In this document: in pieces, positions 1 to 16,309 of the stretch
Layout of the letters: every line of letters starts with the position of its first letter
Position numbering within the stretch: position 1 is the stretch's first letter
Assembly (NCBI GenBank): GCA_020635355.1
Contig: JACJZW010000001.1
Location: 369,633-433,632 of the forward strand
Source of the DNA: Flavobacteriales bacterium
Lineage (GTDB): Bacteria > Bacteroidota > Bacteroidia > NS11-12g > UBA9320
Reading direction: 5' to 3'
Length of the DNA: 64,000 bases
Program-made: the position numbers and the translations under genes
Notes under the pieces: model-generated
Told to the model about the DNA's origin: nothing
The model's input: the letters and a program-made list of their open reading frames with translations, nothing else
Databases searched by the model: none

Positions 1-224
1 CCTGCAAAGGCATAGACCGCCGTGGCAAATAACTCGGGACTTTCCTGCAAGCCCAACCGGCTTACAAAAACTTCCAGGATTAAGGCCGGAATGGTGCTGA
101 GCATGCCAAAGGCAAATGCCTTGGCAAGTAATAATCGCGGTTCGCGATCAAACTTGTCTTTCCAGTAAATGTAGATGCAGATGGCCAGTCCTGGAGCAAG
201 TGCCACCGCCAACAACTGCATCAT
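1..224 (-). CDS. PrsW-family membrane protease, N-terminal fragment (gene runs off the window start)
   Basis: The minus-strand ATG at 224-222 overlaps the TGA of the upstream gene in an ATGA arrangement. The translation begins MMQLLAVALAPGLAICIYIYWKDKFDREPRLL, a hydrophobic N-terminus followed by a YIYxKDKFxREP motif that I recall from PrsW-like proteases. Only about 74 aa fall inside the window. Confidence 0.4.
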   Translation of the reverse strand, partial: MMQLLAVALAPGLAICIYIYWKDKFDREPRLLLAKAFAFGMLSTIPALILEVFVSRLGLQESPELFATAVYAFA

Positions 225-1360
225 CCGATGGCTTGTTTGAGGTCTTCGATGAGATCTTCCACATCTTCAATCCCCACACTCAACCGAATCAATGAGTCTT
301 TCAAACCAGCTTTTTCCCGCTCTTCTTTGGGAATAGATGCGTGCGTCATGCTGGCCGGGTGACCGCATAAAGACTCCACCCCTCCCAATGATTCGGCCAG
401 GGTAAACAGCTTGGTTTGGCTGATCACCTGGAAGGCATCCTCCAAATGATCACCTTTAAGGGTAAAAGACATCATACCGCCAAAATCCCGCATCTGGCGT
501 TTGGCCACATCGTGATTGGGGTGGTGCTCAAAACCAGGCCAGTATACCTTATCCACCTTAGGGTGATTTCTAAGGAACATGGCAATGGCCCGACCATTCT
601 CACAATGGCGTTGCATGCGAAGATGTAATGTTTTGATCCCTCTCAAAACCAGAAAGCAATCCTGTGGACCCGGTGTTCCGCCACAACTATTCTGAATGAA
701 GGTCAATTGCTCATGCAAGGTCTCATCGTTGCACACCAGTACCCCCATCACCACATCGGAATGGCCGTTGATGTATTTGGTCACGGAATGCATCACGATA
801 TCAGCCCCCAAGGTCATCGGATTTTGAAGGTAAGGCGATGCAAACGTGTTATCTACACAGAGCCATGCTCCACATGATTGAGCAAGGCCCGACATCGCTT
901 CGATATCGATCACTTTCAACAATGGATTGGTTGGGGTTTCCACCCAAAAAAGCCTCGTCTTATCGTTTATTAACGACTTCGTTGCCTCCAGGTCGTTCAT
1001 ATCTACGAAGTGAAATACCACACCGTAGTGACTGAATATTTTTGTAAAAATGCGATAGGATCCACCATATAAATCATTGGTTGAAATCACCTCATCACCC
1101 GGTTTTAACAGCTTGGCTACCGCGTCGATGGCCGCCATTCCGCTGGAAAAACACATGCCAAATCGAGCCTGTTCCAACGCGGCAATATTGTCCTGCAATT
1201 GTGTCCGCGTGGGATTATGTGTTCGGCTGTATTCATATCCCTTATGATCGCCGGGACCCGCCTGTGCATAGGTTGATGTCTGATAAATAGGTGTCATGAT
1301 GGCTCCGGTTTCCGGATCCGGGTGAACACCCGCGTGAATGGTTTTGGTGTTGAATTTCAT
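221..1360 (-). CDS. PLP-dependent Cys/Met metabolism enzyme (cystathionine gamma-synthase / cystathionine beta-lyase / methionine gamma-lyase family)
   Basis: The PLP-lysine motif SVTKYINGHSDVVMG is present, along with the family-typical N-terminus MKFNTKTIHAGV. The ORF track starts at a TTG (1372). The first ATG (1360) matches the usual MKF... start. Confidence 0.85.
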   Translation of the reverse strand: MKFNTKTIHAGVHPDPETGAIMTPIYQTSTYAQAGPGDHKGYEYSRTHNPTRTQLQDNIAALEQARFGMCFSSGMAAIDAVAKLLKPGDEVISTNDLYGGSYRIFTKIFSHYGVVFHFVDMNDLEATKSLINDKTRLFWVETPTNPLLKVIDIEAMSGLAQSCGAWLCVDNTFASPYLQNPMTLGADIVMHSVTKYINGHSDVVMGVLVCNDETLHEQLTFIQNSCGGTPGPQDCFLVLRGIKTLHLRMQRHCENGRAIAMFLRNHPKVDKVYWPGFEHHPNHDVAKRQMRDFGGMMSFTLKGDHLEDAFQVISQTKLFTLAESLGGVESLCGHPASMTHASIPKEEREKAGLKDSLIRLSVGIEDVEDLIEDLKQAIG

Positions 1361-1392
1361 ATCGTCGGGCAAATATACACGTGCTCCCCGAC

Positions 1393-3876
1393 CTAATACT
1401 GCCAGTTTCCGCTGAAACCGTTGTAAAAGTCAATACCAAATTTAAGCCCTTGGCTGGCTCCGTTAATGTTGTTGGCTCCGGCCGTATAATACGTGCCAAA
1501 TCGGAACAATTGCCCCCACAAGCGGAATGGGCGTTCCAACCCTGCAAAGGATTCAATGTGCGTCATACCCGTTTCTTCCAATAGCAAAACGCTACTGCCT
1601 ACAGCCGTTTGCAAACCTATGCGTCTAAAAAATCGCATCTGCCCCAAAATGGCTCCATTGAAGTGGTGGACATAATGTCCCTGAAAATACGCCTTGGATG
1701 TGGCCAAACTAAGCGGACCAATCAGTTGGAAGGTTTGGAGCGGATTGGAGAAGTAATAACGATCCGATCCCCGGAAGTATCGAAGACTGCTTATACGTAC
1801 TTCTCGTGCATTAATAAATCGCCCTGCCTGCACCGAGAAACGGGAAATTCCCATTCGGGAAAGCCAGATATCGTGATCACTTCGAACATTGAGCAAATCG
1901 TAGTTCACATCACTTTTCAGGAATGGTTTGATCCCCTTGCTATAATGGACGCGAACGATGGGATACTTCGTTCCAAGAATTACCTTCTTCTCTGGTCTCA
2001 ATTCATACCGCTGACGGAAAGAGATTCTGGCATCCAGCGAAAGAACCAATTCCTCAAATGGAGCGAAATCCTGTGGTTTGGAAAACAGCGGGAAATTCTC
2101 CCAAAAATTCTCAACGGTCTTGCCTTTGTAGGGTCTGAATTGATTGTAATCCACGTAAGACTTCAACAGAAAGCCATTAAATATCTCCCGTTCATAGCCA
2201 ATCCCATAACCAATATTATCCGCGTAATTGGACGGACTGAATGTTGCGCGAATGGAGTTATTGAGGTTAATCATGGTATACACATGGGTGTACTTCAACC
2301 GAATCCGGGAAAATGTAAACGGATCGTACATGAATCGCATATTGGTTTCGCCCCGAACATTCTTGTTCAAAATGCCGTAGCTCAACGATCCCTCGTACTC
2401 CAGTTGCTTACCATTTTTCCAATCCTTGGTAAATGTGCCACCCAACTTATGCCGATACCCGTCCACGGTGTTTATGCTGATTTGGGCCACTAAAGGATAG
2501 AAATACCACTTCACCCCTTTCTTGGTATTTTGATGCTGAATTCCGGTTAATACTATGCCCCAGATATTCATGTGATTCTGAATGGAATCCTGCATTTCCA
2601 AATATTCCACCGATTCGTGAAAAGTCTTGATACTATCTTGGGTATGAACGAATTGCGCTTCCAGTTTTTTCAGTCCGATGGGTCTGAGATTGGCCCAATA
2701 GTCCTCTTCCCGTTTGTAACTATCCGGATCAAAGATGATGTCGCCACTGCGCATAAACTTTTTCGACACCGTCACATTGGGTTGAAATTGATCAAAATAC
2801 ACCGTGGTGTGTCCAAACGCCGTGCGGTTCTTGGGCAACGCTGCATCATAATAAAATTCTTGTCGTTGGATATAGGAATACCTCCCCGTGGAATCAAAAC
2901 CGTAATCCTGCACCATTTGGAACCGATCGAAGAAATGGAGTTTGACGCGCTTAAATTCCAAATCCAGGGCATGAACGGTGAACGATTCATCCCGAATATA
3001 TAGCTCTCCTTCAACGGTGTTCATCGGGGATTTTGGGATGACCTTTATCCGATAGATCATCACACCATCCTCCCGAAACGACTCCAACAGCCGGAAAGCA
3101 TATTTGTCCATGGCGTGCTTACCCACCGGTGAAAGAATGGGCGTAGGTGCCAGTTTGGGCACTTCCAATTGATCGGTATGAATGTTTAAATCACCATCTA
3201 CAATCCGGGTGAAATACAGAAAGGGGTTCGTAATCTCCACACTTTCCCGACCCTTTTCATCCACCGAGACACTGAAGGACACCGTTTGTTGCCGTTGTTC
3301 GGCATTGTCCCTAAAGGCATGTTTAATTTCCTTGAATTGATTTGGACGCTGGAAATAGACATCACTGATCGATTCAATCAGATTGACATTTCTACGTGTC
3401 GTGAGGTCTGGCGTGGTGGTATCCGGGTGTTCCAAATCTTCCATTTCAAGCGAAGCCTTGAGGTACATGGACTCCTGATAGGTTTCCAACCCCTTGTTAT
3501 AGGATTTCGTAGTGGCCATTACTTTACGGATAATGGCATACGCCGGATCTTCCCGATCCTTATCCACTACAACGGTTTGGAGCACTTCCTCAGACTCGGT
3601 CATTCGTATATCCAGGCGGATTTCTCCCCGAACCTGAACCACCTTCTCGATGGGCTGATACCCCAATGACTCAAATACCAACGTATGCTGCCCCTCCGCG
3701 AGGTGAGCGATATAAAATCCCTTCACGTTGGATACAACCCCATACGATCCGCCTTTAACGTGCACCGTAGCATATGAGATGGGGCCCTTGGCATCGGTAA
3801 TATAGCCTTCCACCGTTTGGGACGACGCCCAGCTAGTTCCCAACAGCGAGAATAAAATAAGGAGGTAGCGGTTCAT
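1393..3876 (-). CDS. Carboxypeptidase-like regulatory domain (CarbopepD_reg) protein with a large C-terminal beta-rich domain (DUF5686-like), secreted/OM
   Basis: There is a signal peptide (MNRYLLILFSLLGTSWASSQ). A CarbopepD_reg block follows (VEGYITDAKGPISYATVHVKGG...GFYIAHLAEGQHTLVFESLGYQ). The remaining ~700 aa are rich in aromatic/Gly/Asn and end in ...GNWQY. Confidence 0.6.
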   Translation of the reverse strand: MNRYLLILFSLLGTSWASSQTVEGYITDAKGPISYATVHVKGGSYGVVSNVKGFYIAHLAEGQHTLVFESLGYQPIEKVVQVRGEIRLDIRMTESEEVLQTVVVDKDREDPAYAIIRKVMATTKSYNKGLETYQESMYLKASLEMEDLEHPDTTTPDLTTRRNVNLIESISDVYFQRPNQFKEIKHAFRDNAEQRQQTVSFSVSVDEKGRESVEITNPFLYFTRIVDGDLNIHTDQLEVPKLAPTPILSPVGKHAMDKYAFRLLESFREDGVMIYRIKVIPKSPMNTVEGELYIRDESFTVHALDLEFKRVKLHFFDRFQMVQDYGFDSTGRYSYIQRQEFYYDAALPKNRTAFGHTTVYFDQFQPNVTVSKKFMRSGDIIFDPDSYKREEDYWANLRPIGLKKLEAQFVHTQDSIKTFHESVEYLEMQDSIQNHMNIWGIVLTGIQHQNTKKGVKWYFYPLVAQISINTVDGYRHKLGGTFTKDWKNGKQLEYEGSLSYGILNKNVRGETNMRFMYDPFTFSRIRLKYTHVYTMINLNNSIRATFSPSNYADNIGYGIGYEREIFNGFLLKSYVDYNQFRPYKGKTVENFWENFPLFSKPQDFAPFEELVLSLDARISFRQRYELRPEKKVILGTKYPIVRVHYSKGIKPFLKSDVNYDLLNVRSDHDIWLSRMGISRFSVQAGRFINAREVRISSLRYFRGSDRYYFSNPLQTFQLIGPLSLATSKAYFQGHYVHHFNGAILGQMRFFRRIGLQTAVGSSVLLLEETGMTHIESFAGLERPFRLWGQLFRFGTYYTAGANNINGASQGLKFGIDFYNGFSGNWQY

Positions 3877-3981
3877 GGTTCAATGTTACACTAACCGCTG
3901 AAGATGCTCATCTACGCTCAACGAAAAAGCCCATACGTTGGACAAACGATTCCATAACATAGGTTAATTCCAAGATTTGGC

Positions 3982-3989
3982 TAGGTTTG
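3982..3989 (+). promoter_or_regulatory. Bacteroidota sigma-A -7 box (TAGGTTTG) upstream of the first MscS gene
   Basis: TAGGTTTG matches the TAnnTTTG consensus and lies 24 nt upstream of the ATG at 4014. An identical box precedes the paralog at 5231-5238. Confidence 0.5.
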
Positions 3990-4013
3990 TTTAACCACTT
4001 AACTAAAACAGAT

Positions 4014-4823
4014 ATGGATACCGAAAAAATTATTTCACAGCTCATTGAGATGAGTGTGAATTATGGCCCAAAACTTCTGGGAGCCATAGCGGTTCTGGTC
4101 ATCGGAACCTGGGTGATCAAGTTCCTGGTCAAGGCTATGGGTAAGATGCTGAAAAAATCCGGCATCGACGATTCTCTTGCCTCCTTTCTGCGCACCATGG
4201 CGCACACCCTCATGCGTGTTCTGTTGGTGCTGAGCGTCCTAAGTATGCTGGGCATCGAAATGACGTCATTTATCGCCATCCTGGGCGCAGCCGGACTGGC
4301 CGTGGGTATGGCCCTGAGTGGTACCCTTCAAAACTTCGCCGGAGGGGTGATCATTCTCATATTCAAACCTTACAAGGTGGGTGATGTGATCGAGGCAAAT
4401 GGATATAAGGGAGTGGTTCAGGCCATCCAAATCTTTAACACCATTCTTAAAACGCCAGCCAATCAAACCGTGATTATTCCGAACGGTGAAATGTCGACCT
4501 CCTCCATGGTAAATAATACAATGGGTTCCGATATGTGTGTGGAATGGGTGTTTTCGATCAGTTATGGCGATTCATTTCCCAAGGCTAAAGAGGTGATTTT
4601 GAATCATCTTCGCTCGGATTCCCGTGTGCAACAGGACCGACCACCCTTCGTAGCCTTATTAGCCATGGCCGATAGCTCCATTAACATTGTCACCCGCGCC
4701 TGGGTGAATCAGGATGATTACTGGGGAGTGTTTTTCGATATGAATGAACGCATTTACACCTCCTTCCCTCAAAACGGATTATCCATTCCTTTTCCTCAAA
4801 TGGATGTTCACGTTCATAATTGA
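4014..4823 (+). CDS. Small-conductance mechanosensitive channel (MscS family)
   Basis: Three N-terminal TM helices are followed by an MscS beta-domain block (KPYKVGDVIEANGYKGVVQAIQIFNTILKTPANQTVIIPNGEMSTSSMVN). The ORF track start at 3987 is a TTG. The ATG at 4014 aligns with the paralog N-terminus. Confidence 0.85.
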   Translation: MDTEKIISQLIEMSVNYGPKLLGAIAVLVIGTWVIKFLVKAMGKMLKKSGIDDSLASFLRTMAHTLMRVLLVLSVLSMLGIEMTSFIAILGAAGLAVGMALSGTLQNFAGGVIILIFKPYKVGDVIEANGYKGVVQAIQIFNTILKTPANQTVIIPNGEMSTSSMVNNTMGSDMCVEWVFSISYGDSFPKAKEVILNHLRSDSRVQQDRPPFVALLAMADSSINIVTRAWVNQDDYWGVFFDMNERIYTSFPQNGLSIPFPQMDVHVHN

Positions 4824-4825
4824 GA

Positions 4826-4868
4826 TGCGGGATTCGGGATTCGGGATGCGGGATTCGGGATTCGGGAT
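4826..4868 (+). repeat. (GGGATTC)n heptamer tandem array, 6 G-triplets (G-quadruplex consensus)
   Basis: The sequence gcGGGattcGGGattcGGGatgcGGGattcGGGattcGGGattt lies immediately after the MscS stop codon. Confidence 0.9.
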
Positions 4869-4874
4869 TTTTAA

Positions 4875-4980
4875 TGATTGATTGTTGATGTTGAATGTCT
4901 AATCGAGGACAAAAATGTTTTTGCACTTTGATCTTTGAGTTTTGATCTTCCTTAGTTTAAACGCAAAGCCTCTCAACAAA
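4875..4980 (+). repeat. Direct repeat unit, copy 1 (~106 bp)
   Basis: It runs from tgattgattgttgatgttgaatgtc to tttttgcactttgatctttgagttttgatcttcctt.gtttaaacgcaaagcctctcaacaaa. It is near-identical to 5015-5121. Confidence 0.85.
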
Positions 4981-4983
4981 TTC

Positions 4984-5007
4984 GGGATTCGGGTTTCGGG
5001 ATTCGGG
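4984..5007 (+). repeat. (GGGATTC)-like array, 4 G-triplets
   Basis: The sequence is GGGattcGGGtttcGGGattcGGG. Confidence 0.9.
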
Positions 5008-5014
5008 ATGTTGG

Positions 5015-5121
5015 ATGACTGATTATTGATGTTGGATGTCGAATCGGTAACAATAATGTTTTTGCACTTTGATCTTTGAGTTTTGATCTTCCTTGGTTTA
5101 AACGCAAAGCCTCTCAACGAA
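5015..5121 (+). repeat. Direct repeat unit, copy 2 (~107 bp), followed by a degenerate third partial copy (5122-5215)
   Basis: This is about 90% identical to 4875-4980. The TTGCACTTTGA motif recurs at 4921, 5071, 5168 and 17068. Confidence 0.85.
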
Positions 5122-5230
5122 TTTGGGATGTTGGATTTGAGTTGCCGTATTGAGATCATAGATCTTTTTGCACCTTGATCTTTGCACGTTGAGTTTTAAT
5201 GGTCAATTCGCAATTCAACTTCCTATTCCA

Positions 5231-5238
5231 TAGGTTTG
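5231..5238 (+). promoter_or_regulatory. -7 box TAGGTTTG upstream of the MscS paralog
   Basis: This is the same octamer as at 3982. It lies 10 nt upstream of the ATG at 5249. Confidence 0.45.
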
Positions 5239-5248
5239 CACCCGATAT

Positions 5249-6076
5249 ATGACACTTGACACAGAACTTATTCTTACCAAAGGCGCGGAAATCATTCTTG
5301 AATTCGGGCCAAAATTAATTTCCGCCATTCTGGTTCTCATTGTAGGATTATGGGTGGTCAAATTACTCGTAAAGGGCTTTAACCGGTTGATGGAAAAATC
5401 GTCTCTGGATGATTCCCTCAAGCCATTTTTACGTTCCTTGGTCCGGACCATTCTGCGTATCCTCCTCGTTCTTACAGCACTGAGTACGCTTGGGGTGGAA
5501 ATGACGTCGTTCGTAGCCATTTTAGGTGCCGCAGGTTTGGCCGTTGGTATGGCCCTAAGTGGCACCCTTCAGAATTTTGCCGGAGGAGTGATCATCTTGA
5601 TTTTTAAACCATTCAAGGTGGGCGACTTCATTGAAGCACAGGGATATTCCGGAACGGTTAACTCCATTCAAATTTTCAATACCGTTCTCAAAACACCGGA
5701 CAATAAAACCATCATCATTCCCAACGGTGGCTTATCAACAGGATCAATGATCAATTATAATGAGGAGGCTACCCGACGAGTAGATTGGGTTTTTGGCATT
5801 GCCTACGGCGATGACTATGATCGAGCCGAATCCGTGATTCGCGATATGATGATGCGGGATGATCGTGTTCTCAAGGATCCGGAGGTGTTTATCGCGCTGA
5901 AGGAACTGGCCGATAGCTCTGTGAATCTTGTAGTACGAGCCTGGGTAAACACACCTGATTATTGGGGCGTATTCTTCGATACAAACCAACAGGTGTACAA
6001 AGAATTCCCAAAACACGGCTTGAACATTCCATTTCCACAAGTGGATGTTCACATGCACCAGAACAGCGGGAACTAA
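5249..6076 (+). CDS. Small-conductance mechanosensitive channel (MscS family), paralog of 4014-4823
   Basis: It is collinear with the upstream paralog at roughly 60% identity. Shared blocks include SLDDSLKPFLRS..., GAAGLAVGMALSGTLQNFAGGVIILIFKPFKVGD and IPFPQVDVHMH. Confidence 0.85.
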   Translation: MTLDTELILTKGAEIILEFGPKLISAILVLIVGLWVVKLLVKGFNRLMEKSSLDDSLKPFLRSLVRTILRILLVLTALSTLGVEMTSFVAILGAAGLAVGMALSGTLQNFAGGVIILIFKPFKVGDFIEAQGYSGTVNSIQIFNTVLKTPDNKTIIIPNGGLSTGSMINYNEEATRRVDWVFGIAYGDDYDRAESVIRDMMMRDDRVLKDPEVFIALKELADSSVNLVVRAWVNTPDYWGVFFDTNQQVYKEFPKHGLNIPFPQVDVHMHQNSGN

Positions 6077-6621
6077 AGTCCTGCAAGCTCATACCCAATA
6101 CCCAGTCGTATCATATTTTCACCCACACCATAGGTTCCGGTAGCAAACCAATACTTATGGAAAATGTAGTTCGCAGAAAAGGCCAATTGGATAAAACCAG
6201 TTTTGTACTCTTCACGGGGTTTTACAGCATTGAGTAGAAACGGATTATCGCTTTGAACCAACCATTCCTGGTGCACCCATCCACCCGCCAACGAAAAGGA
6301 TGGATACCAGCGCGCCCCCTTCTTGTAACCTGAGTACCTCAACACCATTCCATAACCGCCCTCATTCCGAATTTGCTTGTATTTTCCCTCACCGGGCCAC
6401 TCATTCACGATTCGATCCCGGTTAATAAAGCCCAGAAAACCAATATTCATTCGCTGACCGTAAGTGGCTTCCATCCATACATGAGGCAGATATTGTTGTT
6501 GGGCTCGTTTTTGATAAAAGTCATACCCCAACGACGTTCTCAACTCGATGACCTGGGCTCGAGAGTCATTGCCGCAGGAAGTCATGAGGATGATAAGGAC
6601 AAGTGATCTAACTGCCATCAT
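6073..6621 (-). CDS. Outer-membrane beta-barrel protein (small porin-like), hypothetical
   Basis: There is a signal peptide (MMAVRSLVLIILMTSCG). The composition alternates aromatic and Gly residues and the protein ends in ...GYELAGL. It converges on the MscS paralog with a 4-nt overlap. Confidence 0.5.
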   Translation of the reverse strand: MMAVRSLVLIILMTSCGNDSRAQVIELRTSLGYDFYQKRAQQQYLPHVWMEATYGQRMNIGFLGFINRDRIVNEWPGEGKYKQIRNEGGYGMVLRYSGYKKGARWYPSFSLAGGWVHQEWLVQSDNPFLLNAVKPREEYKTGFIQLAFSANYIFHKYWFATGTYGVGENMIRLGIGYELAGL

Positions 6622-7142
6622 TATTCCTCCGGATTGAAGTTTAGTCCATAGCCTTCAGGAATTTCAGGTACCACTAACACATATTTAAACGAGAACCCTG
6701 TTATTCCTGTGCCGAAACATCCAGTAAAGGACTCAAGTCGAGATCCAATCATGATTTCCTCAAGTTTGTGATTCACGAACACCCGATATTCCAGGTGGGC
6801 GTCATTCACTTCGTTAACCCCACCAAAATCTGCCATTATTACATCCTCTGTGGTCCAATCAACATCTGAAAAATAGCCGGAAATGAGCTTGAAGTTGGAT
6901 AAACTATTGGTGTCCTTGATTACAAAGCCATTGAGTTTGTCATGAGTGAGCTGTCCGCTACTGAAGAGGCGGGTTGCAATATCTGTATAAGTCAATTCAT
7001 TGGTGCCAATAATGCGAGTATTGAGCAAATCGTACCCTTGAGGTGTCTCAAAACGGGTACTGAAATCCCTCTTGACTTCCAGACAACAGGACGAAAATAT
7101 AAACACACTGATAACTAATACGAAAGACAACAACCTGTTCAT
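6621..7142 (-). CDS. Lipoprotein, hypothetical
   Basis: A lipobox-like signal is present (MNRLLSFVLVISVFIFSSCC). The ORF track start at 7148 is a TTG; the first ATG is at 7142. It shares a single nucleotide with the start of the downstream barrel gene. Confidence 0.45.
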   Translation of the reverse strand: MNRLLSFVLVISVFIFSSCCLEVKRDFSTRFETPQGYDLLNTRIIGTNELTYTDIATRLFSSGQLTHDKLNGFVIKDTNSLSNFKLISGYFSDVDWTTEDVIMADFGGVNEVNDAHLEYRVFVNHKLEEIMIGSRLESFTGCFGTGITGFSFKYVLVVPEIPEGYGLNFNPEE

Positions 7143-7204
7143 GTACAACCCAAAGTTATTCTGGTTGATGGAATGTTGCTGCCGTATCCATCAAAATGAC
7201 AAAA

Positions 7205-7861
7205 TCAGGATTTCTTTAGCGCGCCGTCCTTCATTTCAATGACCCGATCAGCTGCTTCTGCCAGCGTTTGATTGTGGGTAACGATGATAAACGTTTGATT
7301 AAATTCATCGCGCAGCTGAAAAAAGAGGTCGTGAAGTTCGGAGGCATTTTCCGTATCCAGATTTCCTGAGGGCTCATCCGCCAATACCACCTTTGGTTCG
7401 TTCATGAGTGCCCTGGCTACCGCAACACGCTGTTGCTCTCCTCCACTCATGGCAGCCGGTTTATGCTGTTGCCGATGACCCAAATTCAAAAATTCCAATA
7501 GTTCCTTCGCTCTCGCTTCAGCCTTTCGACGGGATGTTCCGGCGATAAAGGCCGGCATGCACACATTCTCCAGGGCCGTAAACTCCGGCAATAAATGATG
7601 GAACTGAAAAATGAAGCCAATATTTCGATTTCGAAACGTAGACAAATCCCTGGAATTCAGTTTAAACAAATCCACATCGTCATACATCACCTGTCCGGCA
7701 TCCGGCTTGTCCAACGTTCCGATAATTTGCAACAACGTTGTTTTACCGGCACCAGAAGCTCCAACAATACTTACTATTTCACCATCGGAAATGGTGAGAT
7801 CCACTCCCTTCAAGACCTCTACACGGCCATACGACTTCTGTATTCCGGCAACTTTTATCAT
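7205..7861 (-). CDS. ABC transporter ATP-binding protein (LolD/MacB/FtsE-like); no adjacent permease
   Basis: It carries Walker A (GASGAGKTT), the ABC signature ([15 protein letters not shown]), Walker B ([12 protein letters not shown]) and an H-loop (IVTHN). Its start lies 3 nt after the stop of the M1-barrel gene. Confidence 0.85.
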
Positions 7862-7864
7862 GAA

Positions 7865-10800
7865 TCAGAAGGTTCGGTTTATCCCGACAACATATCGGTA
7901 CGCCACGTAATTAGACTGCTCTTCTGGGATTCGATTGAGGAAGAACGGCATATCAAATCGAAGGTTCATAGGCGTATAGCCTCCTACACGAAACATATCT
8001 AAAGATACAACCGCACCAATTCCAGCATCCATTCGCAAGCCACTCCACTGATTGTCGCTGTTGCCCAATATACCCGCATCCGCAAAGGCATATGGATGAA
8101 TTTTCGGCCCGTTACGCAGCCATCGTGGCACCTTGAACTGCAGGTATCGGCCAAAATCCAATTCAGCGCTGAACGATGTGCCACGCGTTCCGCTGTAAAT
8201 GGTAAACGTATCGTTGTCCTGAACATTGGTAATGGCCACTCCGGAATATCCACGGATATTGAGTCCGCCACCCTGTTGGAAGTGTGCCCCATCCCGATTG
8301 TGTTGGATGGGTTTATCTACAAATCCGTACGAACGGACATACATATTATCCATCAAATCCGATGTGTTTGCACCACCCAGTAACAACATAGACTCCGGAG
8401 CGATTGAAACACCACTCATCCATTGACCAAACCAGCGTAAATGCAATCCAGCCTTATGCAGATTGCGATTGAATTTCCATTCAGCACTTCCCGCTGCGTA
8501 GGCGTAGTCCGACTGCAACGAAGTGGAGTATGTACGCAAGTTCCAGGATCCGTTGCCATTCATGGTCTTAATGTACCGCAAGAAACTGAGTTCAATGCGT
8601 GTTTCCCATAAACCCGATTTATTGGCGAATTCCGGATACACCAGGTATTCAGCATTCCGGCGTTGTCTGGCAGAGGTATGTAAACTCAGGTAACCTTTTC
8701 CGGCTTCTCGGGTCAGACCAACGGAATTATACGTCCAACCGTCCAAATACCTACTGTCCAGTGTTAACCGATTATAGCTTTTGAATTTCTTGCTGTATTG
8801 CACACTGTAGGACACCAGATCAGGGTTGGACGGATCGGCGTTGGGTTTTGAACCGATGCCGGTATTGTACCACACCCCCAGGTTGAACAGGTGATCGGTA
8901 TTATAAAAGTTACCGGCTAAGCGGGCACCTGCCTTTATTCCATCTACATCATTGTACCAAATAGATGGCCCATAATTCATCACATATGTGCGAAAGGAGG
9001 ATGGCGAATACTTCCCAACGTTAAATCGCCATTCAATCGGCATTTTCTTGGAGTTATTCAGTCGATTGATGTCGGCCATACGACCGCTTGGGTCTATCTC
9101 CACATTCTTGATTCCACCGGGAATCGCAACAATCATGGAGTACTCAGGCTTTATCAGGTCCCAACCAATCCAGTTGGGCAGCACCGCTGCTGTTGTTTGT
9201 TTTTTGAAATAGGAATTGGGGATGTAATACTCGTGGACACTGCCATCTTTGGCGGTAACCCGAACATCTAACGGCATGGAAGCACCCTTTCTATGCAAGG
9301 TGATTTCATACTGATTACCTTTTAGATGTTTGACCTGACCCACTTTATAGTCAATGGTTGTAGTGCCTTCGATCCATTGGTCAAAAAACTGATTGAGATC
9401 CACACCGGTATAATCAATGATAGATGATCTGAAATCCTCCCAATAAGGATGACAGAATTTCCATTGATCGAAATAATGTTTGAAGGCATCTGAAAACAAC
9501 TTATCTCCCAAAATGTACTCAAGTTGATAGAGCATTGTAGCTGTTTTATAATAGACTTGACCGTATCCTCCGCCGTGTCGAACAGCCGAATTAAAATAGT
9601 CTGAATGAATGTTCAAACTGGCGGTGTTATCGTGTATAGCGTGGTTGATGTATCCGTTGTACACCACTCCATCGTCTGTTCCATTGGGTAGCCCTTGAAC
9701 CGACATAATTTTCTTTAACGACAGTGCGGTCAAAAATTGAGTAAATCCTTCGTCAAGTGAGGCGCGGTAGGTTTCGTTGTTTCCAACCATTCCAAAGAAC
9801 CAGTTGTGTCCCACTTCATGGGCAATCACATAGCGATGTCCTGGCCAATTGCCGCTGTTGAGGGTTAACATGGGATACTCCATACCATCACGGGCATCGG
9901 CAGCAATCATCTTCGGATAGCCAAACATGCCCACATCTTCACTGTAGGTCCGAACCACATCGGCTACAAACTGAGCCGTTGGCTGCCAGTTGTGGGCGTG
10001 TTCTTCCTGAGCCAGCGCAATGCATCGGATTCCGTTCCATACCACTTCTCCAATGCGGTAAGTGGGATCGGCTGTAAAGGCAAAATCATGCACATTTACG
10101 GCCTTGAAATGCCAGGATTTACGGGTTCCGTCTCGCGGAACAGGGTTGGTATAAACGTCTCGTGATGTTTTGTAGTTGGAAATATCCAGTCGCTGTCTGA
10201 GATCTCCCGGGTACACCTCCGACTCATTTTGTAACTCCCCGGTTGCTTCCACAATGTATTCTGACGGAAAGTTCAACGTGACATCGTACACGCCGTAATC
10301 ACCATAGAATTCTTTGCCCAAGTGCTGATCGGTGGTCCAACCAAATTTTCGATCGAATACCGCGATGCGAGGATACCAATGCACACCATCTAGGTGTAAA
10401 AATTCCCGATCATCGGTACCGCCATGCCGGAATGATTTCATCCGCCTGCGAATGTTGCCCGCATCGTCCTTGTCCCAATACGTCCAGAATTCAATTTGAA
10501 TCTCCATACCGGAGTTGGGCTTCAGCGGCTCCTTCAAATCCACAATTAAAATCGTATTGTCTATGGTCCATGCATTGGATTCACCGTTGATACTCACACT
10601 CTGAATGGACGTTCCCAGACCCTTGGCTTCATGTTCACCATAAACGCTTTTCTCTTTATCGTTCTTCCGCATATCCGAGAGATACGAATTAGGCGTGAAA
10701 GCATTTTGATAGAGATGGAAGTAGAGTTGGGTAATCTCCTTTGGTGAGTTATTCCAATAGATCAGCTTCTCTTTTCCCTGAATACTTTCATCATTGTCAT

Positions 10801-11005
10801 TTACGGCTGCAGTAATGGTGTAATGGACATCCTGTTGCCAGTAGGATGGAAAAGGTTTACGATTCCCCCAATAGTAGGCGTTTGAGGAACTTTGGTAGGC
10901 CTGTAAATCCGGTGAGGGCTGGACAGGTGCTCCGAATGATGTTCCGGCAGAGAAGGTTATGAGGCTGAATAAAATGAGGACTACTGCTGGGCGAAAAATC
11001 AGCAT
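7865..11005 (-). CDS. Exported M1-family zinc metallopeptidase domain fused to a C-terminal Omp85/BamA-like outer-membrane beta-barrel
   Basis: There is a signal peptide (MLIFRPAVVLILFSLITFSAGTSFGA). The M1 zinc site is present: HEVGH followed 18 residues later by E (SLDEGFT), plus a GMEYP GAMEN-like motif. The C-terminal ~500 aa are beta-rich with Y/W/G/N alternation, contain the Omp85-type GGGLNIRGYSG motif, and end in ...INRTF. The ORF track start at 11134 overlaps folE. The ATG at 11005 directly precedes the signal peptide. Confidence 0.6.
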   Translation of the reverse strand: MLIFRPAVVLILFSLITFSAGTSFGAPVQPSPDLQAYQSSSNAYYWGNRKPFPSYWQQDVHYTITAAVNDNDESIQGKEKLIYWNNSPKEITQLYFHLYQNAFTPNSYLSDMRKNDKEKSVYGEHEAKGLGTSIQSVSINGESNAWTIDNTILIVDLKEPLKPNSGMEIQIEFWTYWDKDDAGNIRRRMKSFRHGGTDDREFLHLDGVHWYPRIAVFDRKFGWTTDQHLGKEFYGDYGVYDVTLNFPSEYIVEATGELQNESEVYPGDLRQRLDISNYKTSRDVYTNPVPRDGTRKSWHFKAVNVHDFAFTADPTYRIGEVVWNGIRCIALAQEEHAHNWQPTAQFVADVVRTYSEDVGMFGYPKMIAADARDGMEYPMLTLNSGNWPGHRYVIAHEVGHNWFFGMVGNNETYRASLDEGFTQFLTALSLKKIMSVQGLPNGTDDGVVYNGYINHAIHDNTASLNIHSDYFNSAVRHGGGYGQVYYKTATMLYQLEYILGDKLFSDAFKHYFDQWKFCHPYWEDFRSSIIDYTGVDLNQFFDQWIEGTTTIDYKVGQVKHLKGNQYEITLHRKGASMPLDVRVTAKDGSVHEYYIPNSYFKKQTTAAVLPNWIGWDLIKPEYSMIVAIPGGIKNVEIDPSGRMADINRLNNSKKMPIEWRFNVGKYSPSSFRTYVMNYGPSIWYNDVDGIKAGARLAGNFYNTDHLFNLGVWYNTGIGSKPNADPSNPDLVSYSVQYSKKFKSYNRLTLDSRYLDGWTYNSVGLTREAGKGYLSLHTSARQRRNAEYLVYPEFANKSGLWETRIELSFLRYIKTMNGNGSWNLRTYSTSLQSDYAYAAGSAEWKFNRNLHKAGLHLRWFGQWMSGVSIAPESMLLLGGANTSDLMDNMYVRSYGFVDKPIQHNRDGAHFQQGGGLNIRGYSGVAITNVQDNDTFTIYSGTRGTSFSAELDFGRYLQFKVPRWLRNGPKIHPYAFADAGILGNSDNQWSGLRMDAGIGAVVSLDMFRVGGYTPMNLRFDMPFFLNRIPEEQSNYVAYRYVVGINRTF

Positions 11006-11090
11006 GGTGTGGAATCGGGAAACGAATTGTCGCATAGGTATGGTGAGAGCGACAAAGATTATAAAAATGAGCGGTTTAAGAAATCGGCTG

Positions 11091-11711
11091 TTAGTAGCCG
11101 ATGTATCGCAAAAATTCCAACCGGGTGGCTTCATTTTGGAATTGGCCTCCGAGGTCGGCCGTAACCGTGGATGAGTTCACGTCTTCCACTCCTCGCGCAG
11201 CCACACACATGTGTGCCGCATCGATTACTACGGCAACATCTTCCGTTTTGAGCGTCTTGCGCAGTTCAGCTGCGATTTGTCGGGTGAGGCGCTCCTGAAC
11301 CTGAGGTCGTCGACAGAAATACCGAACAATCCGATTGATCTTGGATAATCCAATCACCTCACCATTGGAAATGTAGGCCACGTGGGCTTTTCCGTAAATG
11401 GGTACCAAATGATGCTCACAGGTTGAGAACACGGCGATCTCCTTTTCAACCAGCATTTGGCTGTATTGGTATTTATTCTCAAATAAGGTGACTCGCGGCT
11501 TGTTATCCGGATTCAACCCACTGAACAATTCCTGGACGTACATTTTCGCTACCCGATGTGGTGTTCTTGCGAGGCTGTCGTCCTTGAGATCCATGCCCAG
11601 AATGTCCAAAATGCTGCGAACATGGGTTTCAATCTTCTCGATCTTTTCCTGATCACTCAGTTCAAACGCATCCGGACGAATGGGGGTATTTATATCATCT
11701 GATCGGGTCAT
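11091..11711 (-). CDS. folE: GTP cyclohydrolase I
   Basis: Conserved FolE blocks are present: SGLNPDNKPRVTLFENKYQYSQMLVEKEIAVFSTCEHHLVPIYGKAHVAYI and RPQVQERLTRQIAAEL. Confidence 0.9.
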   Translation of the reverse strand: MTRSDDINTPIRPDAFELSDQEKIEKIETHVRSILDILGMDLKDDSLARTPHRVAKMYVQELFSGLNPDNKPRVTLFENKYQYSQMLVEKEIAVFSTCEHHLVPIYGKAHVAYISNGEVIGLSKINRIVRYFCRRPQVQERLTRQIAAELRKTLKTEDVAVVIDAAHMCVAARGVEDVNSSTVTADLGGQFQNEATRLEFLRYIGY

Positions 11712-11720
11712 GTGCTTTTA

Positions 11721-12128
11721 TTACGGGTTGATCTCAACAAAATTGCGTTCCGTTTCGTACAAACGAATACCCAACTCAAGATGTTCACTGATGGCTGCTC
11801 TTAATTTTTTATAAATCACGATGGCAATGTTCTCAACCGTAGGATTCAACTCTTTAAAGTCCGGTACGTCGAGATTTAGATTTCGGTGATCAAACGCCTT
11901 TACCACGTACTGCTCAATTAGACCTTTCAAAACGCCTAAGTCAATGACGTAACCCGTTTCAGGATCTATTTCACCTGTGATTTTCACCTCCAACACGTAA
12001 TTGTGACCGTGATAGTTTGGGTAATTGCACTTACCAAATAGTTCCTGATTTCGCTCGGCCGACAAGTTGGGATTGTGCAGCCGATGCGCGGCGTTAAAAT
12101 GTGCTTTTCGAAATACCGATATCTTCAC
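11721..12128 (-). CDS. queD: 6-carboxy-5,6,7,8-tetrahydropterin synthase / 6-pyruvoyl-tetrahydropterin synthase family
   Basis: The PTPS-fold Zn site is present (CNYPNYHGHNY; Cys-x5-His-Gly-His). The N-terminal block KAHFNAAHRL and the length (135 aa) fit. The start is GTG. No in-frame ATG lies upstream. Confidence 0.8.
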   Translation of the reverse strand: MKISVFRKAHFNAAHRLHNPNLSAERNQELFGKCNYPNYHGHNYVLEVKITGEIDPETGYVIDLGVLKGLIEQYVVKAFDHRNLNLDVPDFKELNPTVENIAIVIYKKLRAAISEHLELGIRLYETERNFVEINP

Positions 12129-12428
12129 GCAACAAATCTACGGAATTCAAGGGCGCATTTTTTCTGTTCAAGAGTTTTAGCTCTTTCTTAAACAAAAACA
12201 TCATAATGTCCGGATAAACTAAAACAGACAGTTTAATGACATGATTCACCCTACCCTATGCGTCTACACAGTAAAATCAAGTACTTACATCAGGTTATTG
12301 CCCAAATGAATGCTGATATAAGAAAATGTGATACATCCCAATAGACTGATTTACAAGTTATTGAGATTTTGTTTAACGTTTTTGGTGTTTTATTAAACAG
12401 TTTTAGTTGTAGGTACATTTAATTGGGT

Positions 12429-12436
12429 TAACTTTG
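12429..12436 (+). promoter_or_regulatory. -7 box TAACTTTG upstream of the ECF sigma gene
   Basis: It matches TAnnTTTG and lies 20 nt upstream of the ATG at 12457. It sits in a 328-bp AT-rich divergent intergenic region. Confidence 0.45.
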
Positions 12437-12456
12437 ACCTACCAATAACAACCGAT

Positions 12457-12975
12457 ATGAACTTTGATCGCGAAATACATGATGAGCAACCAGCGCTAAC
12501 CAGTTACGCTCTCCAGCTCACAAAAAATATGGAAGATGCCAATGACCTCGTTCAGGAAACGATGCTCAAGGCGCTCACCTATAAATCCAAGTTTACGGAA
12601 GGTACCAACCTCAAAGGATGGTTGTATACGATCATGCGAAACAGCTTCATCAACAACTACCGACGTTTGATGCGACGCAATACCTTCATCGACACCACCG
12701 ATAACACCTACTTTCTGGATGCGCCAACGCATACAACTGAAAATCTGGGTGAAGATCGATTTCTGAATAAGGACTTACAAGATGCCATCGAGACGTTGCC
12801 GGAAGATTTGAAGAAAACGTTCACGATGAACATGCGCGGATTCAAATACCATGAAATCGCTGAAGAATTGGACATTCCCATTGGAACGGTAAAAACCCGA
12901 ATTTTTGTGGCTAAACGTCGTCTCCGCAAACAACTCCATACTTACGCTGAGTTGTACGGTTTGAAGGCTGAATAA
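12457..12975 (+). CDS. RNA polymerase sigma-70 family (ECF-type) sigma factor
   Basis: Sigma-2 region (LVQETMLKALTYKSKF...WLYTIMRNSFINNYRR) and sigma-4 region (HEIAEELDIPIGTVKTRIFVAKRRLRKQL) are present. The protein is 172 aa. No adjacent anti-sigma gene. Confidence 0.85.
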   Translation: MNFDREIHDEQPALTSYALQLTKNMEDANDLVQETMLKALTYKSKFTEGTNLKGWLYTIMRNSFINNYRRLMRRNTFIDTTDNTYFLDAPTHTTENLGEDRFLNKDLQDAIETLPEDLKKTFTMNMRGFKYHEIAEELDIPIGTVKTRIFVAKRRLRKQLHTYAELYGLKAE

Positions 12976-12976
12976 C

Positions 12977-14215
12977 TTAATCGGCTGATAACGCTTCTAC
13001 CGGCCTGATGCGCGCGGCCCTTCCTGCGGGAATTAATGCCGCCAGTGCTCCGGCAATCACCAGCACCACTAACGCCGTTACGGCCGTTTGAAAATCCACC
13101 GTTGGATTGGCAAATACCGCCCCGTCCGCACCGGATGGAATTGCCTTGGCTAGAAGTTCAATGATCAGTACTCCAAAGAAGAGTCCGAAATATCCGAAGA
13201 ACAGGGTAATCAGAACGGCTTCCTGAACAATCATCGATACGATGGATCGCGGCGTGGCACCCAATGATTTCCGAATCCCAATTTCCTTCGTACGTTCCTC
13301 CACGGTGATGAGCATGATGTTACTCACCCCAATGATTCCTGCAAAAATGGTGAGGACGCCAATTAACCAGAAGAAAGATTTCATCAGTCCCAACACATCG
13401 TATATCCGCTTAAATTCCTTAAAATTATTTCGAATGTGTAACGCCCGTTCATCTTCCGGTGAAAAATTATGCCGTGCCGCCATGCGTTCCCTCAATCGGG
13501 CTTCAATACGCTCGGTAGATGCCAAATCAGCGTCTCCAACCGTAAACATCGCGCGATCAATCTTATCTGAATAGCCATAGGCAAGCTGCATGGTTTTAAT
13601 CGGCAGGTACACGGTTGCATTTTCCCCTTCACTTCCTTCGTCCACAAACACACCTACCACCCGAAAGGGAACACCTCCCACACTCACCCATTTGCCAAGT
13701 GCCGATTCGCCATTAAATAACTCGGTTTCAACCGGTTCACCAATTACACAAACTTTTCGCCTCCGGCTGATATCGGCATCATTCACGAACCGCCCCTTCA
13801 TCATGATGGTTTTCTCTACATACTGATGTCCGGGATGCACGCCTCGGAGTCGGTATGTGGATGATTTTGAGCCGTAGGTCACGATGCGACCCTGCCAGTC
13901 GTCCACGCGAGCAGACAGATGATCGGCCTCGGATCCAACCTCATTGGTAATGATGTCAAAATCCTTATCCCGAAATTGAATACGTCGTCCTGGCTGCGTG
14001 CCATTATACGTCATACTGGTTTGACCGGGAATCACCCAGATGCTATTGATCGCATCATCCTTGAACTGTTCTCTCGTCCCGTTTTGCAAGCCCGTTCCTA
14101 CGCCTAACAGCAACACCAGCATGAAGATGCCCCAGGCCACGGCAAATCCGGTTAGCACCGTTCGCAGCTTGTTGGTTCGAATGTTCGACCAGATCTCGCC
14201 TAATCGCTCTATCAT
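12977..14215 (-). CDS. ABC transporter permease, FtsX/MacB-type (MacB periplasmic domain + FtsX)
   Basis: An N-terminal TM helix is followed by a ~230-aa periplasmic domain and a C-terminal 3-TM FtsX-like region (FWLIGVLTIFAGIIGVSNIMLITV...). The ATG overlaps the TGA of the upstream ATPase gene in an ATGA arrangement. Confidence 0.8.
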   Translation of the reverse strand: MIERLGEIWSNIRTNKLRTVLTGFAVAWGIFMLVLLLGVGTGLQNGTREQFKDDAINSIWVIPGQTSMTYNGTQPGRRIQFRDKDFDIITNEVGSEADHLSARVDDWQGRIVTYGSKSSTYRLRGVHPGHQYVEKTIMMKGRFVNDADISRRRKVCVIGEPVETELFNGESALGKWVSVGGVPFRVVGVFVDEGSEGENATVYLPIKTMQLAYGYSDKIDRAMFTVGDADLASTERIEARLRERMAARHNFSPEDERALHIRNNFKEFKRIYDVLGLMKSFFWLIGVLTIFAGIIGVSNIMLITVEERTKEIGIRKSLGATPRSIVSMIVQEAVLITLFFGYFGLFFGVLIIELLAKAIPSGADGAVFANPTVDFQTAVTALVVLVIAGALAALIPAGRAARIRPVEALSAD

Positions 14216-14871
14216 ACCACCAGGCCGTCTTTGAGGTTAATGACACGCGACGTTTGTTCTGCAATGTCGTGTTCGTGCGTAACGATGATGACGGTTTTCC
14301 CAGATGCATTGATTTCCTTCAACACGTTCATGACGTCCTGTGAGGTTTGAGAATCCAACGCCCCAGTAGGCTCATCGGCCAAAATAAGTTTGGGATTGGT
14401 AATTAACGCACGGGCAATGGCCACTCGCTGTTTTTGTCCGCCGCTCATTTCATTGGGAAGGTGATTGGCCCAATCCTTTAAGCCCACACGATCCAAATAA
14501 TCCAGTGCCATGGCATTCCGCTCACGGCGACTTACGTTCTGATAGTAAAGCGGAAGTGCCACATTCTCCAACGCATTTTTAAAGGTCACGAGGTTAAACG
14601 ACTGAAAAACAAAACCGATGTACTGTCCACGCAACTTGGCGGCACGAGTCTCACTCAGGTTTTTGATCAGTTCATTGTCGATGTAGTATTCCCCGCTGTC
14701 ATAGGAATCCAGAATACCAATGATGTTCAAAAGTGTGGATTTTCCGGATCCGGAAGACCCCATAATCGACACCAACTCCCCATCGGCAATATCCAGGTTA
14801 ATGCCCTTGAGTACCTGCAGCTTATGGCTGCCAATGGAATAGGATTTGGTTATGCCGCGGAGTTGAATCAA
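14212..14871 (-). CDS. ABC transporter ATP-binding protein (MacB/LolD-like)
   Basis: It carries Walker A (GSSGSGKST), the ABC signature ([15 protein letters not shown]) and Walker B ([11 protein letters not shown]). The start is TTG. No in-frame ATG lies upstream. Confidence 0.85.
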
Positions 14872-14957
14872 GGGTCCTAATTTTCCTCAAAAATAACATC
14901 GGCCGGCAGGCCTTGATCCCACTTCGACAAAGACGAGCATTAAATGGATTGGCGACT

Positions 14958-15803
14958 CTATCTGTCCAGCATCCGAAGGGTGAACGGAATATCATCGGTT
15001 TGAACCGCGTCGGGTTGAAAGTTCAAGGCTTCCCGAACATCGGAGTGAATCTTAAGTCCGTATAATGACCACTGAAGGTTGGCGTTGTCCATCCTCTGTC
15101 TCATTTGTGGTGTGCATTTCAAGTAGTTGGACACCAATCCTTGCAGCTGATGATCTACCGCAAACGCGATGTTTTGATCAGTGGCTTCGGCCGTGAAATA
15201 AAGGGGTATATCATCACGTCCGGCTGCCGCCATTTTTAAGGCAATCATCTGTTCGGGTTCCGGGCTTTCAATGATAATGACATGCCGGGAAGTCACGTCC
15301 GAAGTGATTTCTGCCATCAATTGCTCCGCCCGTTTTTGGAACAACGCTGGTTGATCCAATGCATCCGATTGTGGCTGAAGATTTAAGGACACCTTCACCA
15401 CCCGTTGTGCTTCATCTAATATGTCGAATAGGTGCTGCAAGCTGATGACTGGATAATCTCTTGAAGCATCTAAAGCACCTTTATACGAGGCCGTCACCAC
15501 GTCCTCCATTTTCAGCTCCCCGATGGCTCCAAATCCATTCGTTGAACTTTCCAGCCGGTGATCATGATACAACACTATTTTTCCATCAGAGGTCAATTGG
15601 ATGTCTACCTCAACACCATCGGCACCGAAGGCAAATAATGCCCTGCGAATGGCTGCTTCACTATTGGCCGGATGAGGATTGGTGGCCGACATAAATCCGC
15701 CGCCACCATGACCATATACATCAACGTGCCGATTGACCGAAACGCGTGTACATCCTACGAAGAGGATGACTATTGCCAATAACTGAAACCGAGACTTATA
15801 CAA
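14958..15803 (-). CDS. Glycerophosphodiester phosphodiesterase family protein (lipoprotein)
   Basis: A lipoprotein signal is present (LLAIVILFVGCT). GDPD motifs are present: HGGGG...NSEAAIRRAL.FGADGVEVDIQLTSDGKIVLYHDHRL. The start is TTG. Confidence 0.75.
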   Translation of the reverse strand: MYKSRFQLLAIVILFVGCTRVSVNRHVDVYGHGGGGFMSATNPHPANSEAAIRRALFAFGADGVEVDIQLTSDGKIVLYHDHRLESSTNGFGAIGELKMEDVVTASYKGALDASRDYPVISLQHLFDILDEAQRVVKVSLNLQPQSDALDQPALFQKRAEQLMAEITSDVTSRHVIIIESPEPEQMIALKMAAAGRDDIPLYFTAEATDQNIAFAVDHQLQGLVSNYLKCTPQMRQRMDNANLQWSLYGLKIHSDVREALNFQPDAVQTDDIPFTLRMLDR

Positions 15804-16301: not shown

Positions 16302-16309
16302 TATTTTTG
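16302..16309 (+). promoter_or_regulatory. -7 box TATTTTTG upstream of the DUF2188 gene
   Basis: It matches TAnnTTTG and lies 15 nt upstream of the ATG at 16325. Confidence 0.45.

Follow-up and report, generated by a model that had tools for sequence, protein, structure and literature searches.

The window analyzed in the present study, a 64,000-nucleotide stretch of contig JACJZW010000001.1 from a Flavobacteriales metagenome-assembled genome (MAG) of approximately 45% G+C, carries two adjacent genes for small-conductance mechanosensitive channels, MscS-1 and MscS-2, and the 425 bp between them (4824-5248, read directly from the window) are filled with short tandem repeats. This locus raises the question of whether the repeats gave rise to the gene pair, as an earlier note on this DNA had suggested, or accumulated in a spacer that was already there, and whether they serve a function at the end of the upstream gene. 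The explanation that we consider probable is that heptameric simple sequence repeats (SSRs) filled the spacer through slippage and block duplication and supply a structured 3' element. The identity, origin, and timing of the spacer repeats are given here with high confidence, and the 3'-boundary function of the array, which we infer, is tentative and may well not apply. The arrays did not bring about the duplication of MscS, and they are neither a mobile element nor a phase-variation switch.

The spacer is heptamer-derived throughout, being a mosaic of tandem repeats with short units, mostly of 7 nt, in which GGGATTC is dominant. A G-rich array of GGGATTC and GGGATGC units on the forward strand ((GGGATKC)6.6, 4824-4869; 92% match by the tandem repeat finder, six G-tracts, G4Hunter score of 1.25) begins on the first base past the stop codon of MscS-1, and a second forward-strand array, (GGGWTTC)4.3, is located at 4980-5009 (91% match, four G-tracts). 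A regular-expression search for the G-quadruplex (G4) pattern G3N4G3N4G3N4G3 found a fit at 4829-4852 and another at 4984-5007. The six-unit and four-unit arrays of the G4 type described previously are, thus, present at 6.6 and 4.3 copies, and the first places G4-type motifs on the coding strand directly 3' of MscS-1, 0 nt past the stop, as was also described. The GGGATTC dimer GGGATTCGGGATTC occurred 17 times in the window with one mismatch or less, against an expectation of 0.07, and four of the five G4-pattern matches in the 64 kb were heptamer arrays (mean of shuffled sequences, 0.5).

Both arrays are embedded in a tandem unit of 141 bp. Copy 1 (4839-4979, forward strand) consists of an array, decayed heptamers of the GATTGTT/GATGTTG type, a TTTGNNC run, and a short non-periodic tail, while copy 2 (4980-5120, forward strand) opens with the array at 4980-5009 and is identical to copy 1 at 126 of 141 positions (89%). 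Alignment and repeat families also revealed a third copy on the same strand, which extends from 5121 to approximately 5215, reaches the MscS-2 promoter, and has a 35-bp deletion; its array has decayed to TTTGGGATGTTGGATTTG with the loss of G4 competence. The earlier note had described this decayed copy together with direct repeats of approximately 106 bp; the repeats were recovered at approximately 89% identity, but their size is better given as 141 bp including the array, 106 bp being the non-GGGATTC part. Read in register, the unit passes from GATTCGG through GATTTTT, GATTGTT, and GATGTTG to TTTGCAC, TTTGATC, and TTTGAGT. Identity at a lag of 7 nt was 0.49 for the whole spacer and 0.42 for both the 110-bp non-GGGATTC part and the tail, with a value of approximately 0.25 in the MscS genes and repeat-free intergenic DNA. 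From the 141-bp unit, solely the GGGATTC arrays are seen again at other sites of the window, where the non-array 110 bp has no second copy. Two minus-strand open reading frames (ORFs) in this region (4690-4926 and 4899-5159), previously dismissed as spurious, matched no Pfam family above the cut-off and translate the repeats, which supports that assessment.

The two genes flanking the spacer are old paralogs. MscS-1 (4014-4823, forward strand, TGA stop at 4821-4823) and MscS-2 (5249-6076, forward strand) each matched PF00924, PF21082, PF05552, and PF21088, the transmembrane (TM) helices, beta-domain, and C-terminal domain of both proteins all being above the Pfam cut-off, which places both in the MscS family. 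The proteins share 161 of 268 residues (60%) in an ungapped alignment, in agreement with the value given in the earlier note; nucleotide identity was 61%, and identity at third codon positions was 41%, which is near saturation. Sequence reading located the promoter box TAGGTTTG, of the Bacteroidota -7 type, at 3982-3989 (forward strand) for MscS-1 and at 5231-5238 (forward strand), 10 nt before the ATG, for MscS-2. TAnnTTTG is the -7 promoter consensus of Bacteroidota; the window contains 35 copies, and 12 of these sit 8-80 nt before ORF starts, representing an enrichment. The related genome GCA_016124755.1 (L127) likewise has TAGGTTTG 5' of its MscS-2, 13 nt from the ATG. The identical -7 boxes to which attention had been drawn are present, but they are not notable: the box common to both paralogs is the ordinary phylum-wide motif, and agreement in its two free positions is unremarkable.

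A comparison with related genomes separates the age of the genes from that of the repeats. GCA_020437705.1 was 99.4% identical to positions 1-16074 of the window and had an identical spacer. The nearest other lineage on record, GCA_016124755.1 (L127, also L126), shares the gene order of the window from the aminotransferase gene to the GDPD gene, with MscS-1 and MscS-2 in tandem around a spacer of 80 bp, and no short tandem arrays were found in its 20.8 kb. Orthologs were 74% (MscS-1) and 73% (MscS-2) identical between the two lineages, while paralogs were 60-62% identical in both genomes. Furthermore, the median identity of MscS-2 to 118 other homologs, the named ones of which were mostly from Bacteroidota, was 66%, which is above its identity to MscS-1; no further ortholog of MscS-1 with more than 63% identity was detected among 5.8 billion proteins. 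Since the relative carries the same pair with an 80-bp repeat-free spacer and orthologs are closer than paralogs, the MscS duplication is, on these sequence comparisons, ancient and took place before the two lineages separated, and the spacer was filled with repeats afterward, in the lineage of the window.

The repeats appear to be stable at present. The spacer was identical in L001, which shows 92 differences over 16 kb elsewhere (0.6% divergence), and in L003, and a 123-bp array-filled gap at 41323-41445 did not differ among six full-length assemblies, which came from different samples. Comparisons of strains for array-length variation, as proposed in the earlier note, accordingly yielded no polymorphism among L001, L003, and these six further assemblies, which constitute a small strain sample. 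The short-read assemblies L002, L004, L005, and L006, which are independent of each other, all begin at window position 5065, inside copy 2 of the 141-bp unit; the 141-bp repeat systematically breaks assemblies of this host.

Arrays of the same unit are not confined to the MscS locus and recur at 16714-17054 and 41415-41446. Tandem repeat and pattern searches of the former region found three forward-strand GGGATTC arrays (16714-16745, 16893-16924, and 17009-17054) together with GCTAAC[CT] and TTTGCAC heptamers. This locus occupies a convergent gap 3' of a DUF2188 gene (16307-16639, forward strand), for which an exact-protein look-up returned no record, and its first array starts 74 nt past the stop. 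It also contains a block duplication (16837-17040; 88 nt, 116-bp spacing, 81% identity) that comprises GCTAAC[CT] heptamers, a unique stretch, and a GGGATTC array. At the third locus, the tandem repeat finder identified a reverse-strand array, (GGGATTC)3.9, with three G-tracts (41415-41446), which overlaps by 1 nt with the TAG stop of a Pirin gene (41446-42585, reverse strand). Sense-strand GGGATTC arrays, therefore, adjoin stop codons at two of the three loci, MscS-1 (0 nt) and Pirin (1-nt overlap). The numbers of G-tracts in register in the six GGGATTC arrays at these three unlinked intergenic loci were 6, 4, 4, 4, 3, and 3, and the variants GGGATGC and GGGTTTC each differ at one position from GGGATTC, which is a unit of the GGGANTN type.

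Several arrays of 7-8-nt units in the window, octamers as well as heptamers, adjoin stop codons on the sense strand. A forward-strand octamer array, (GGTTCARR)n (41324-41385), starts 1 nt past the TAA stop of a tryptophan (Trp) dioxygenase gene (40261-41322, forward strand), and another starts 4 nt past the stop of a DPP-IV gene, at 47097. The genes adjoining arrays (MscS, DUF2188, Pirin, Trp dioxygenase, and DPP-IV) are functionally unrelated.

A scan for (GGGATTC)3 with one genome per species found at least 119 stretches, and the loci described below represent an unsystematic sample of these. Among the matches listed, the majority were from Lysobacterales (Xanthomonas, Lysobacter, Stenotrophomonas, Luteimonas, Rhodanobacter, Dokdonella, Aquimonas, and others), and the remainder included Acidobacteriota, Planctomycetota, Nostoc, Chloroflexota, and Actinomycetota, as well as Phaeodactylibacter, Saprospiraceae, Lewinellaceae, and Chitinophaga from Bacteroidota. 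Period 7 was dominant in the loci listed, with 193 arrays against nine at most for any of periods 5, 6, and 8-11, and the other heptamers in these loci were mostly of GGG(G)ANNN types. Genes in this cross-phylum comparison were crude ORF calls with the arrays masked, in which stop positions are robust. Among the arrays listed within 15 nt of a stop, 34 were G-sense and six were C-sense (p=8e-6); among those within 15 nt of a start, the positions of which are not robust, 27 were C-sense and three were G-sense. The gene 5' of the G-strand was the nearer one for 78 of 111 arrays listed (p=2e-5), and the 5' end of the G-strand adjoins a gene end in Lysobacterales, Acidobacteriota, Planctomycetota, Bacteroidota, and Nostoc. 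An inverted partner array was found on the 3' side in 37 of 116 arrays listed and on the 5' side in none, and the polarity of the arrays with respect to genes was also kept by those without an inverted partner (52 of 74 arrays listed). The strand and position bias that the earlier note had proposed to check was, thus, observed both in the window and among approximately 120 arrays listed from other genomes.

The number of G-tracts in register peaked at four among the arrays listed (44 arrays, with 25 having three and 17 having five), a comparison that is limited by the three perfect units demanded in the scan. Three of 127 arrays listed (L050, L092, and L104, from Rhodanobacter or Lysobacteraceae) lie inside the loops of 12-26-bp palindromes resembling repetitive extragenic palindromic (REP) sequences; the nesting of arrays in hairpin loops was rejected as a general rule because it applied to just 3-6 of 127 arrays listed. 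Scans of viral contigs gave small and unspecific numbers (15 for (GGGATTC)3, 15 for the control (GGGTTAC)3, in which G3 is preserved, four for the scramble (GTGAGTC)3, and three for (GGGAATC)3), with no sign in these contigs of phages spreading the arrays.

Regarding structures that the spacer may form, Rfam returned no match, either in a scan of the window at the gathering threshold or in a scan of 4700-5350 at E<=1. A terminator consensus scan found no hairpin-plus-U terminator in 4824-5248, and a promoter consensus scan of the spacer gave no candidate. In the window, strong canonical terminators are located 3' of three other genes (at 49568, 51139, and 56632), while the array-followed genes, a small sample, have no hairpin-plus-U terminators. 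As DNA, the arrays folded worse than shuffled sequences (z of +0.6 to +1.8). An intrinsic (Rho-independent) terminator was rejected as a candidate on the basis of this weak DNA fold and the lack of a G+C-rich hairpin with a direct U-tract. As RNA, the region 4815-4880 was predicted by RNAfold to form a wobble hairpin of -20.2 kcal/mol and four units a hairpin of -7.4 kcal/mol, and the G4 term of ViennaRNA for four units was -8.4 kcal/mol. GGAUUC RNA is self-complementary via two G.U pairs; GGGAAUC, the unit of Xanthomonas, lacks this hairpin (-1.5 kcal/mol).

Taken together with the comparison of relatives, these results fit a scenario in which the repeats grew inside a pre-existing spacer of approximately 80 bp between anciently duplicated MscS genes. 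Growth very probably took place at two levels, namely, replication slippage of single units and unequal recombination between arrays, the latter of which duplicated the 141-bp block two to three times, and the promoter of MscS-2, located at the 3' margin of the spacer, remained intact. Since MscS-1 and the array are not separated by a terminator, the MscS-1 message probably includes the array as its 3' end. A sense strand with at least four G-tracts may then fold into an intramolecular G4, and a G.U-wobble hairpin is a possible alternative for the RNA of the GGGATTC unit because GGAUUC pairs with itself. In either form, the array may act as a structured 3' boundary element that separates the two transcription units by pausing the polymerase or blocking 3' exonucleases.

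Several findings weigh against this scenario. The wobble hairpin has no canonical U-tract at 0-2 nt, U5 beginning 4 nt past the stem, and the RNA fold of the whole spacer was no better than that of shuffled sequences (z=0.15). The G4Hunter score of (GGGATTC)4 was 1.14, which is under the usual threshold of 1.2 (that of (GGGATTC)3GGG was 1.375), and two of the six window arrays (17014 and 41421) cannot form a three-tetrad intramolecular G4 because they have just three G-tracts in register. The (GGTTCARR)n octamers adjoin stops likewise with GG doublets alone, and, therefore, adjacency to stops does not need G4 potential. A study dedicated to G-rich heptameric SSRs assigned no function to them (Rehm et al., 2015; PMC4692102). 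On the question of timing, the absence of repeats was observed in the single syntenic lineage that the databases contain, seen in two assemblies, and the count of zero arrays in 20.8 kb of this relative is not significant by itself.

Among the other explanations considered, the reading of the earlier note, in which recombination between direct repeats drove a recent tandem duplication of MscS, accounts for direct repeats lying between two paralogs of the same orientation. It is refuted by the ortholog comparison, each paralog being nearer to its ortholog (73-74%) than to its neighbor (60-62%), and the syntenic relative carries the pair 80 bp apart and repeat-free, which is the situation that the earlier note itself had associated with an ancient duplication. 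Moreover, third codon positions have diverged to 41% identity against 89% for the 141-bp repeats, MscS-2 is nearer to other, mostly Bacteroidota homologs than to MscS-1, and the repeats are confined between the genes and do not surround the duplicated segment; we regard this origin as barely conceivable. The insertion of the 141-bp unit between the genes as a miniature mobile element (of the miniature inverted-repeat transposable element (MITE), REP, or bacterial interspersed mosaic element (BIME) type) is scarcely more credible. The common starting point of the four short-read assemblies inside the unit and the three listed arrays in REP-like palindrome loops would be compatible with such an element; however, the local 141-bp tandem alone accounts for the assembly breaks, the spacer contains no terminal inverted repeats or palindrome, the 110 bp outside the array have no further copy in the 64 kb, and the copies are arranged head-to-tail rather than dispersed, the unit itself being 7-nt periodic. 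An association with insertion sequences (IS) or transposons was also not found for G-rich heptameric SSRs (PMC4692102). Equally improbable is a contingency locus in which array length switches the expression of MscS-2 or MscS-1. Heptamer SSRs drive phase variation in some pathogens, and related Xanthomonas arrays are reportedly polymorphic enough for use as markers in multiple-locus variable-number tandem repeat analysis (MLVA); however, the intact arrays lie past the MscS-1 stop and at least 220 bp 5' of the MscS-2 -7 box, and not in an ORF or between promoter elements, the neighboring genes are of housekeeping types, and both the spacer (L001, 0.6% divergent, and L003) and the 41.3-kb arrays (six assemblies) were invariant. 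A sponge for CsrA-type proteins binding GGA motifs and a role of GANTC methylation sites, which arise from the GATTC contained in each unit, were set aside for lack of evidence.

A more serious competitor, to which we assign slightly less than an even chance, is that the arrays are near-neutral by-products of slippage without a selected role at this locus, tolerated past stops and away from promoters, with their bias arising from mutational asymmetry coupled to transcription or replication. The absence of an assigned function in the dedicated study (PMC4692102) agrees with this view, as do the relative that manages with an 80-bp spacer, the unrelated functions of the adjoining genes, the decayed copy at 5121-5215, which shows no maintenance of G-tracts, and the similar behavior of non-G4 units (the octamers, TTTGNNC, and GCTAACY). 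Free space alone predicts no asymmetry, yet 34 G-sense arrays were found against six C-sense arrays among the stop-adjacent arrays listed, and the polarity extended to arrays without inverted partners (52 of 74 listed). Four-tract arrays outnumbered three-tract arrays among those listed, with no geometric decay, and the same was reported in PMC4692102. Freely slipping SSRs are also expected to be less stable than arrays that are identical across strains 0.6% apart and in six assemblies.

If G-rich heptamer arrays acted as boundary elements, they would represent a non-canonical device for termination or mRNA stabilization rather than junk. An extension of the 3'-element interpretation, namely, that they are pan-bacterial polar gene-boundary elements that, together with sister arrays of 7-8-nt units, replace 3'-end/terminator structures in this Flavobacteriales lineage, with GGGAUUC acting in the sense transcript via a G4 or a G.U-wobble hairpin, is unlikely. 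Arrays of G-rich heptamers are frequent across several phyla, and the window contributes a Bacteroidota example with a different unit as well as a before/after comparison (80 bp in the relative versus 425 bp here). Polarity with respect to stop codons and the sense strand and the preference for four tracts both reach beyond Xanthomonas and Nostoc, which points toward a role linked to RNA or transcription. In annotation, spacers of this type yield spurious ORFs and break short-read assemblies, and are not a trace of recent gene duplication.

The window contains additional features outside the MscS spacer. A gene for a 23S_rRNA_IVP four-helix-bundle protein (IVP; 47178-47543, reverse strand; PF05635, 1.4e-32) is flanked by 28-nt inverted (GGTTCAGA)n octamer arrays (47098-47125 and 47667-47694) that are 93% complementary, which gives the region a cassette-like appearance (47097-47694). 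A hexamer array, (TATGGC)18.8 (54297-54409), is located within a Wzz/GNVR/AAA_31 tyrosine-kinase-like gene (51996-54515) and specifies an extended (YG)n tract close to the C terminus. Directly 3' of the tRNA-Arg(TCG) gene (40144-40218, reverse strand), there is an unrelated tandem repeat that also has a 141-bp unit (2.4 copies, 95% identity; region 39817-40218), and every unit contains the terminal ~21 nt of the tRNA together with a terminator made up of a hairpin and a T-run and with GGTTCGAA-like motifs of the T loop. These units look like pseudo-tRNA or att-site remnants, and the ORF across them (39808-40104, reverse strand) had no Pfam match. An ORF of 327 aa near the second array locus (17092-18075, reverse strand) has a lipoprotein-like signal, MKLYIYALLGFLLLTC...; it matched no Pfam family, and a search of an index of 5.8 billion proteins gave neither a homolog at E<=1e-30 nor a self-match, and, thus, did not lead to a second orthologous spacer in the relative. 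It is either an orphan gene or no gene.

Considering known systems, the window arrays resemble phase-variation SSRs in consisting of short tandem units derived from slippage, and differ in their position outside ORFs and core promoter spacing, their housekeeping neighbors, and the lack of length variation. Their location directly 3' of a gene on the sense strand and the plausible folding of the transcript are shared with Rho-independent terminators and REP-type 3' stabilizers; however, they have no G+C-rich Watson-Crick stem with a U-tract, and any fold would consist of a G4 or a hairpin rich in G.U pairs. The short tandemly repeated repetitive (STRR) heptamers of heterocystous cyanobacteria, reportedly described by Mazel et al. 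in 1990, are also tandem heptanucleotide arrays of several unit types that are dispersed between genes. They differ in unit sequences and phylum, STRR membership being defined by cyanobacterial units; in Nostoc calcicola (L093), a GGGATTC array adjoins an STRR1-type CCCCAGT array.

A further parallel is provided by the TAACTGA heptamer direct repeats of Beggiatoaceae, Cyanobacteria, and five Bacteroidetes, including flavobacteria, the spacers of which carry other heptamers too, while close relatives have the same genes with shorter, repeat-free spacers (MacGregor, 2015; PMC4679880). The same contrast is seen between the window and GCA_016124755.1, both types being intergenic heptamers at gene ends, and the window has a near-match at its second array locus, (CTAACTG)4.7 (16940-16972), which differs from the TAACTGA repeat by one base. 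However, the TAACTGA unit is not G-rich, its arrays are mostly directly 5' of start codons in sense orientation, for which a translational role was proposed, and GGGATTC is not mentioned in that study (PMC4679880).

[quoted passage not shown] They form convergent inverted pairs, are mostly transcribed, and are not tied to IS elements, transposons, or genes of any particular class; in vitro, (GGGAATC)3GGG folds in a K+-dependent manner into a G4 with a T1/2 of 50 C, and their function was described as "still to be elucidated" (PMC4692102). The arrays in the window share the 7-nt G3 unit matching GGGANTN, the dispersed intergenic copies, G4 competence by sequence, and the absence of links to gene functions or IS elements. 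Four or more G-tracts prevail in them, as the mode of four does among the arrays listed from other genomes, and they follow stops at 0 nt (MscS-1), with a 1-nt overlap (Pirin), and at 74 nt (DUF2188), all G-sense. On the other hand, their unit GGGATTC is not mentioned in PMC4692102, and a search of a literature collection for the GGGATTC dimer string gave no match; the host is a Flavobacteriales MAG of ~45% G+C and not a high-G+C gammaproteobacterium or a cyanobacterium; and the arrays are embedded among non-G-rich 7-8-nt units and higher-order tandem blocks of 116-141 bp. Convergent inverted pairs of GGGATTC arrays, a frequent but non-obligatory feature of the class, were absent from the window, and GGGAUUC RNA is wobble-self-complementary, whereas GGGAAUC is not. 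Judged by their sequence and placement, the spacer arrays belong to the class of G-rich heptameric SSRs, to which they add a new phylum, represented by Flavobacteriales, and the new unit GGGATTC.

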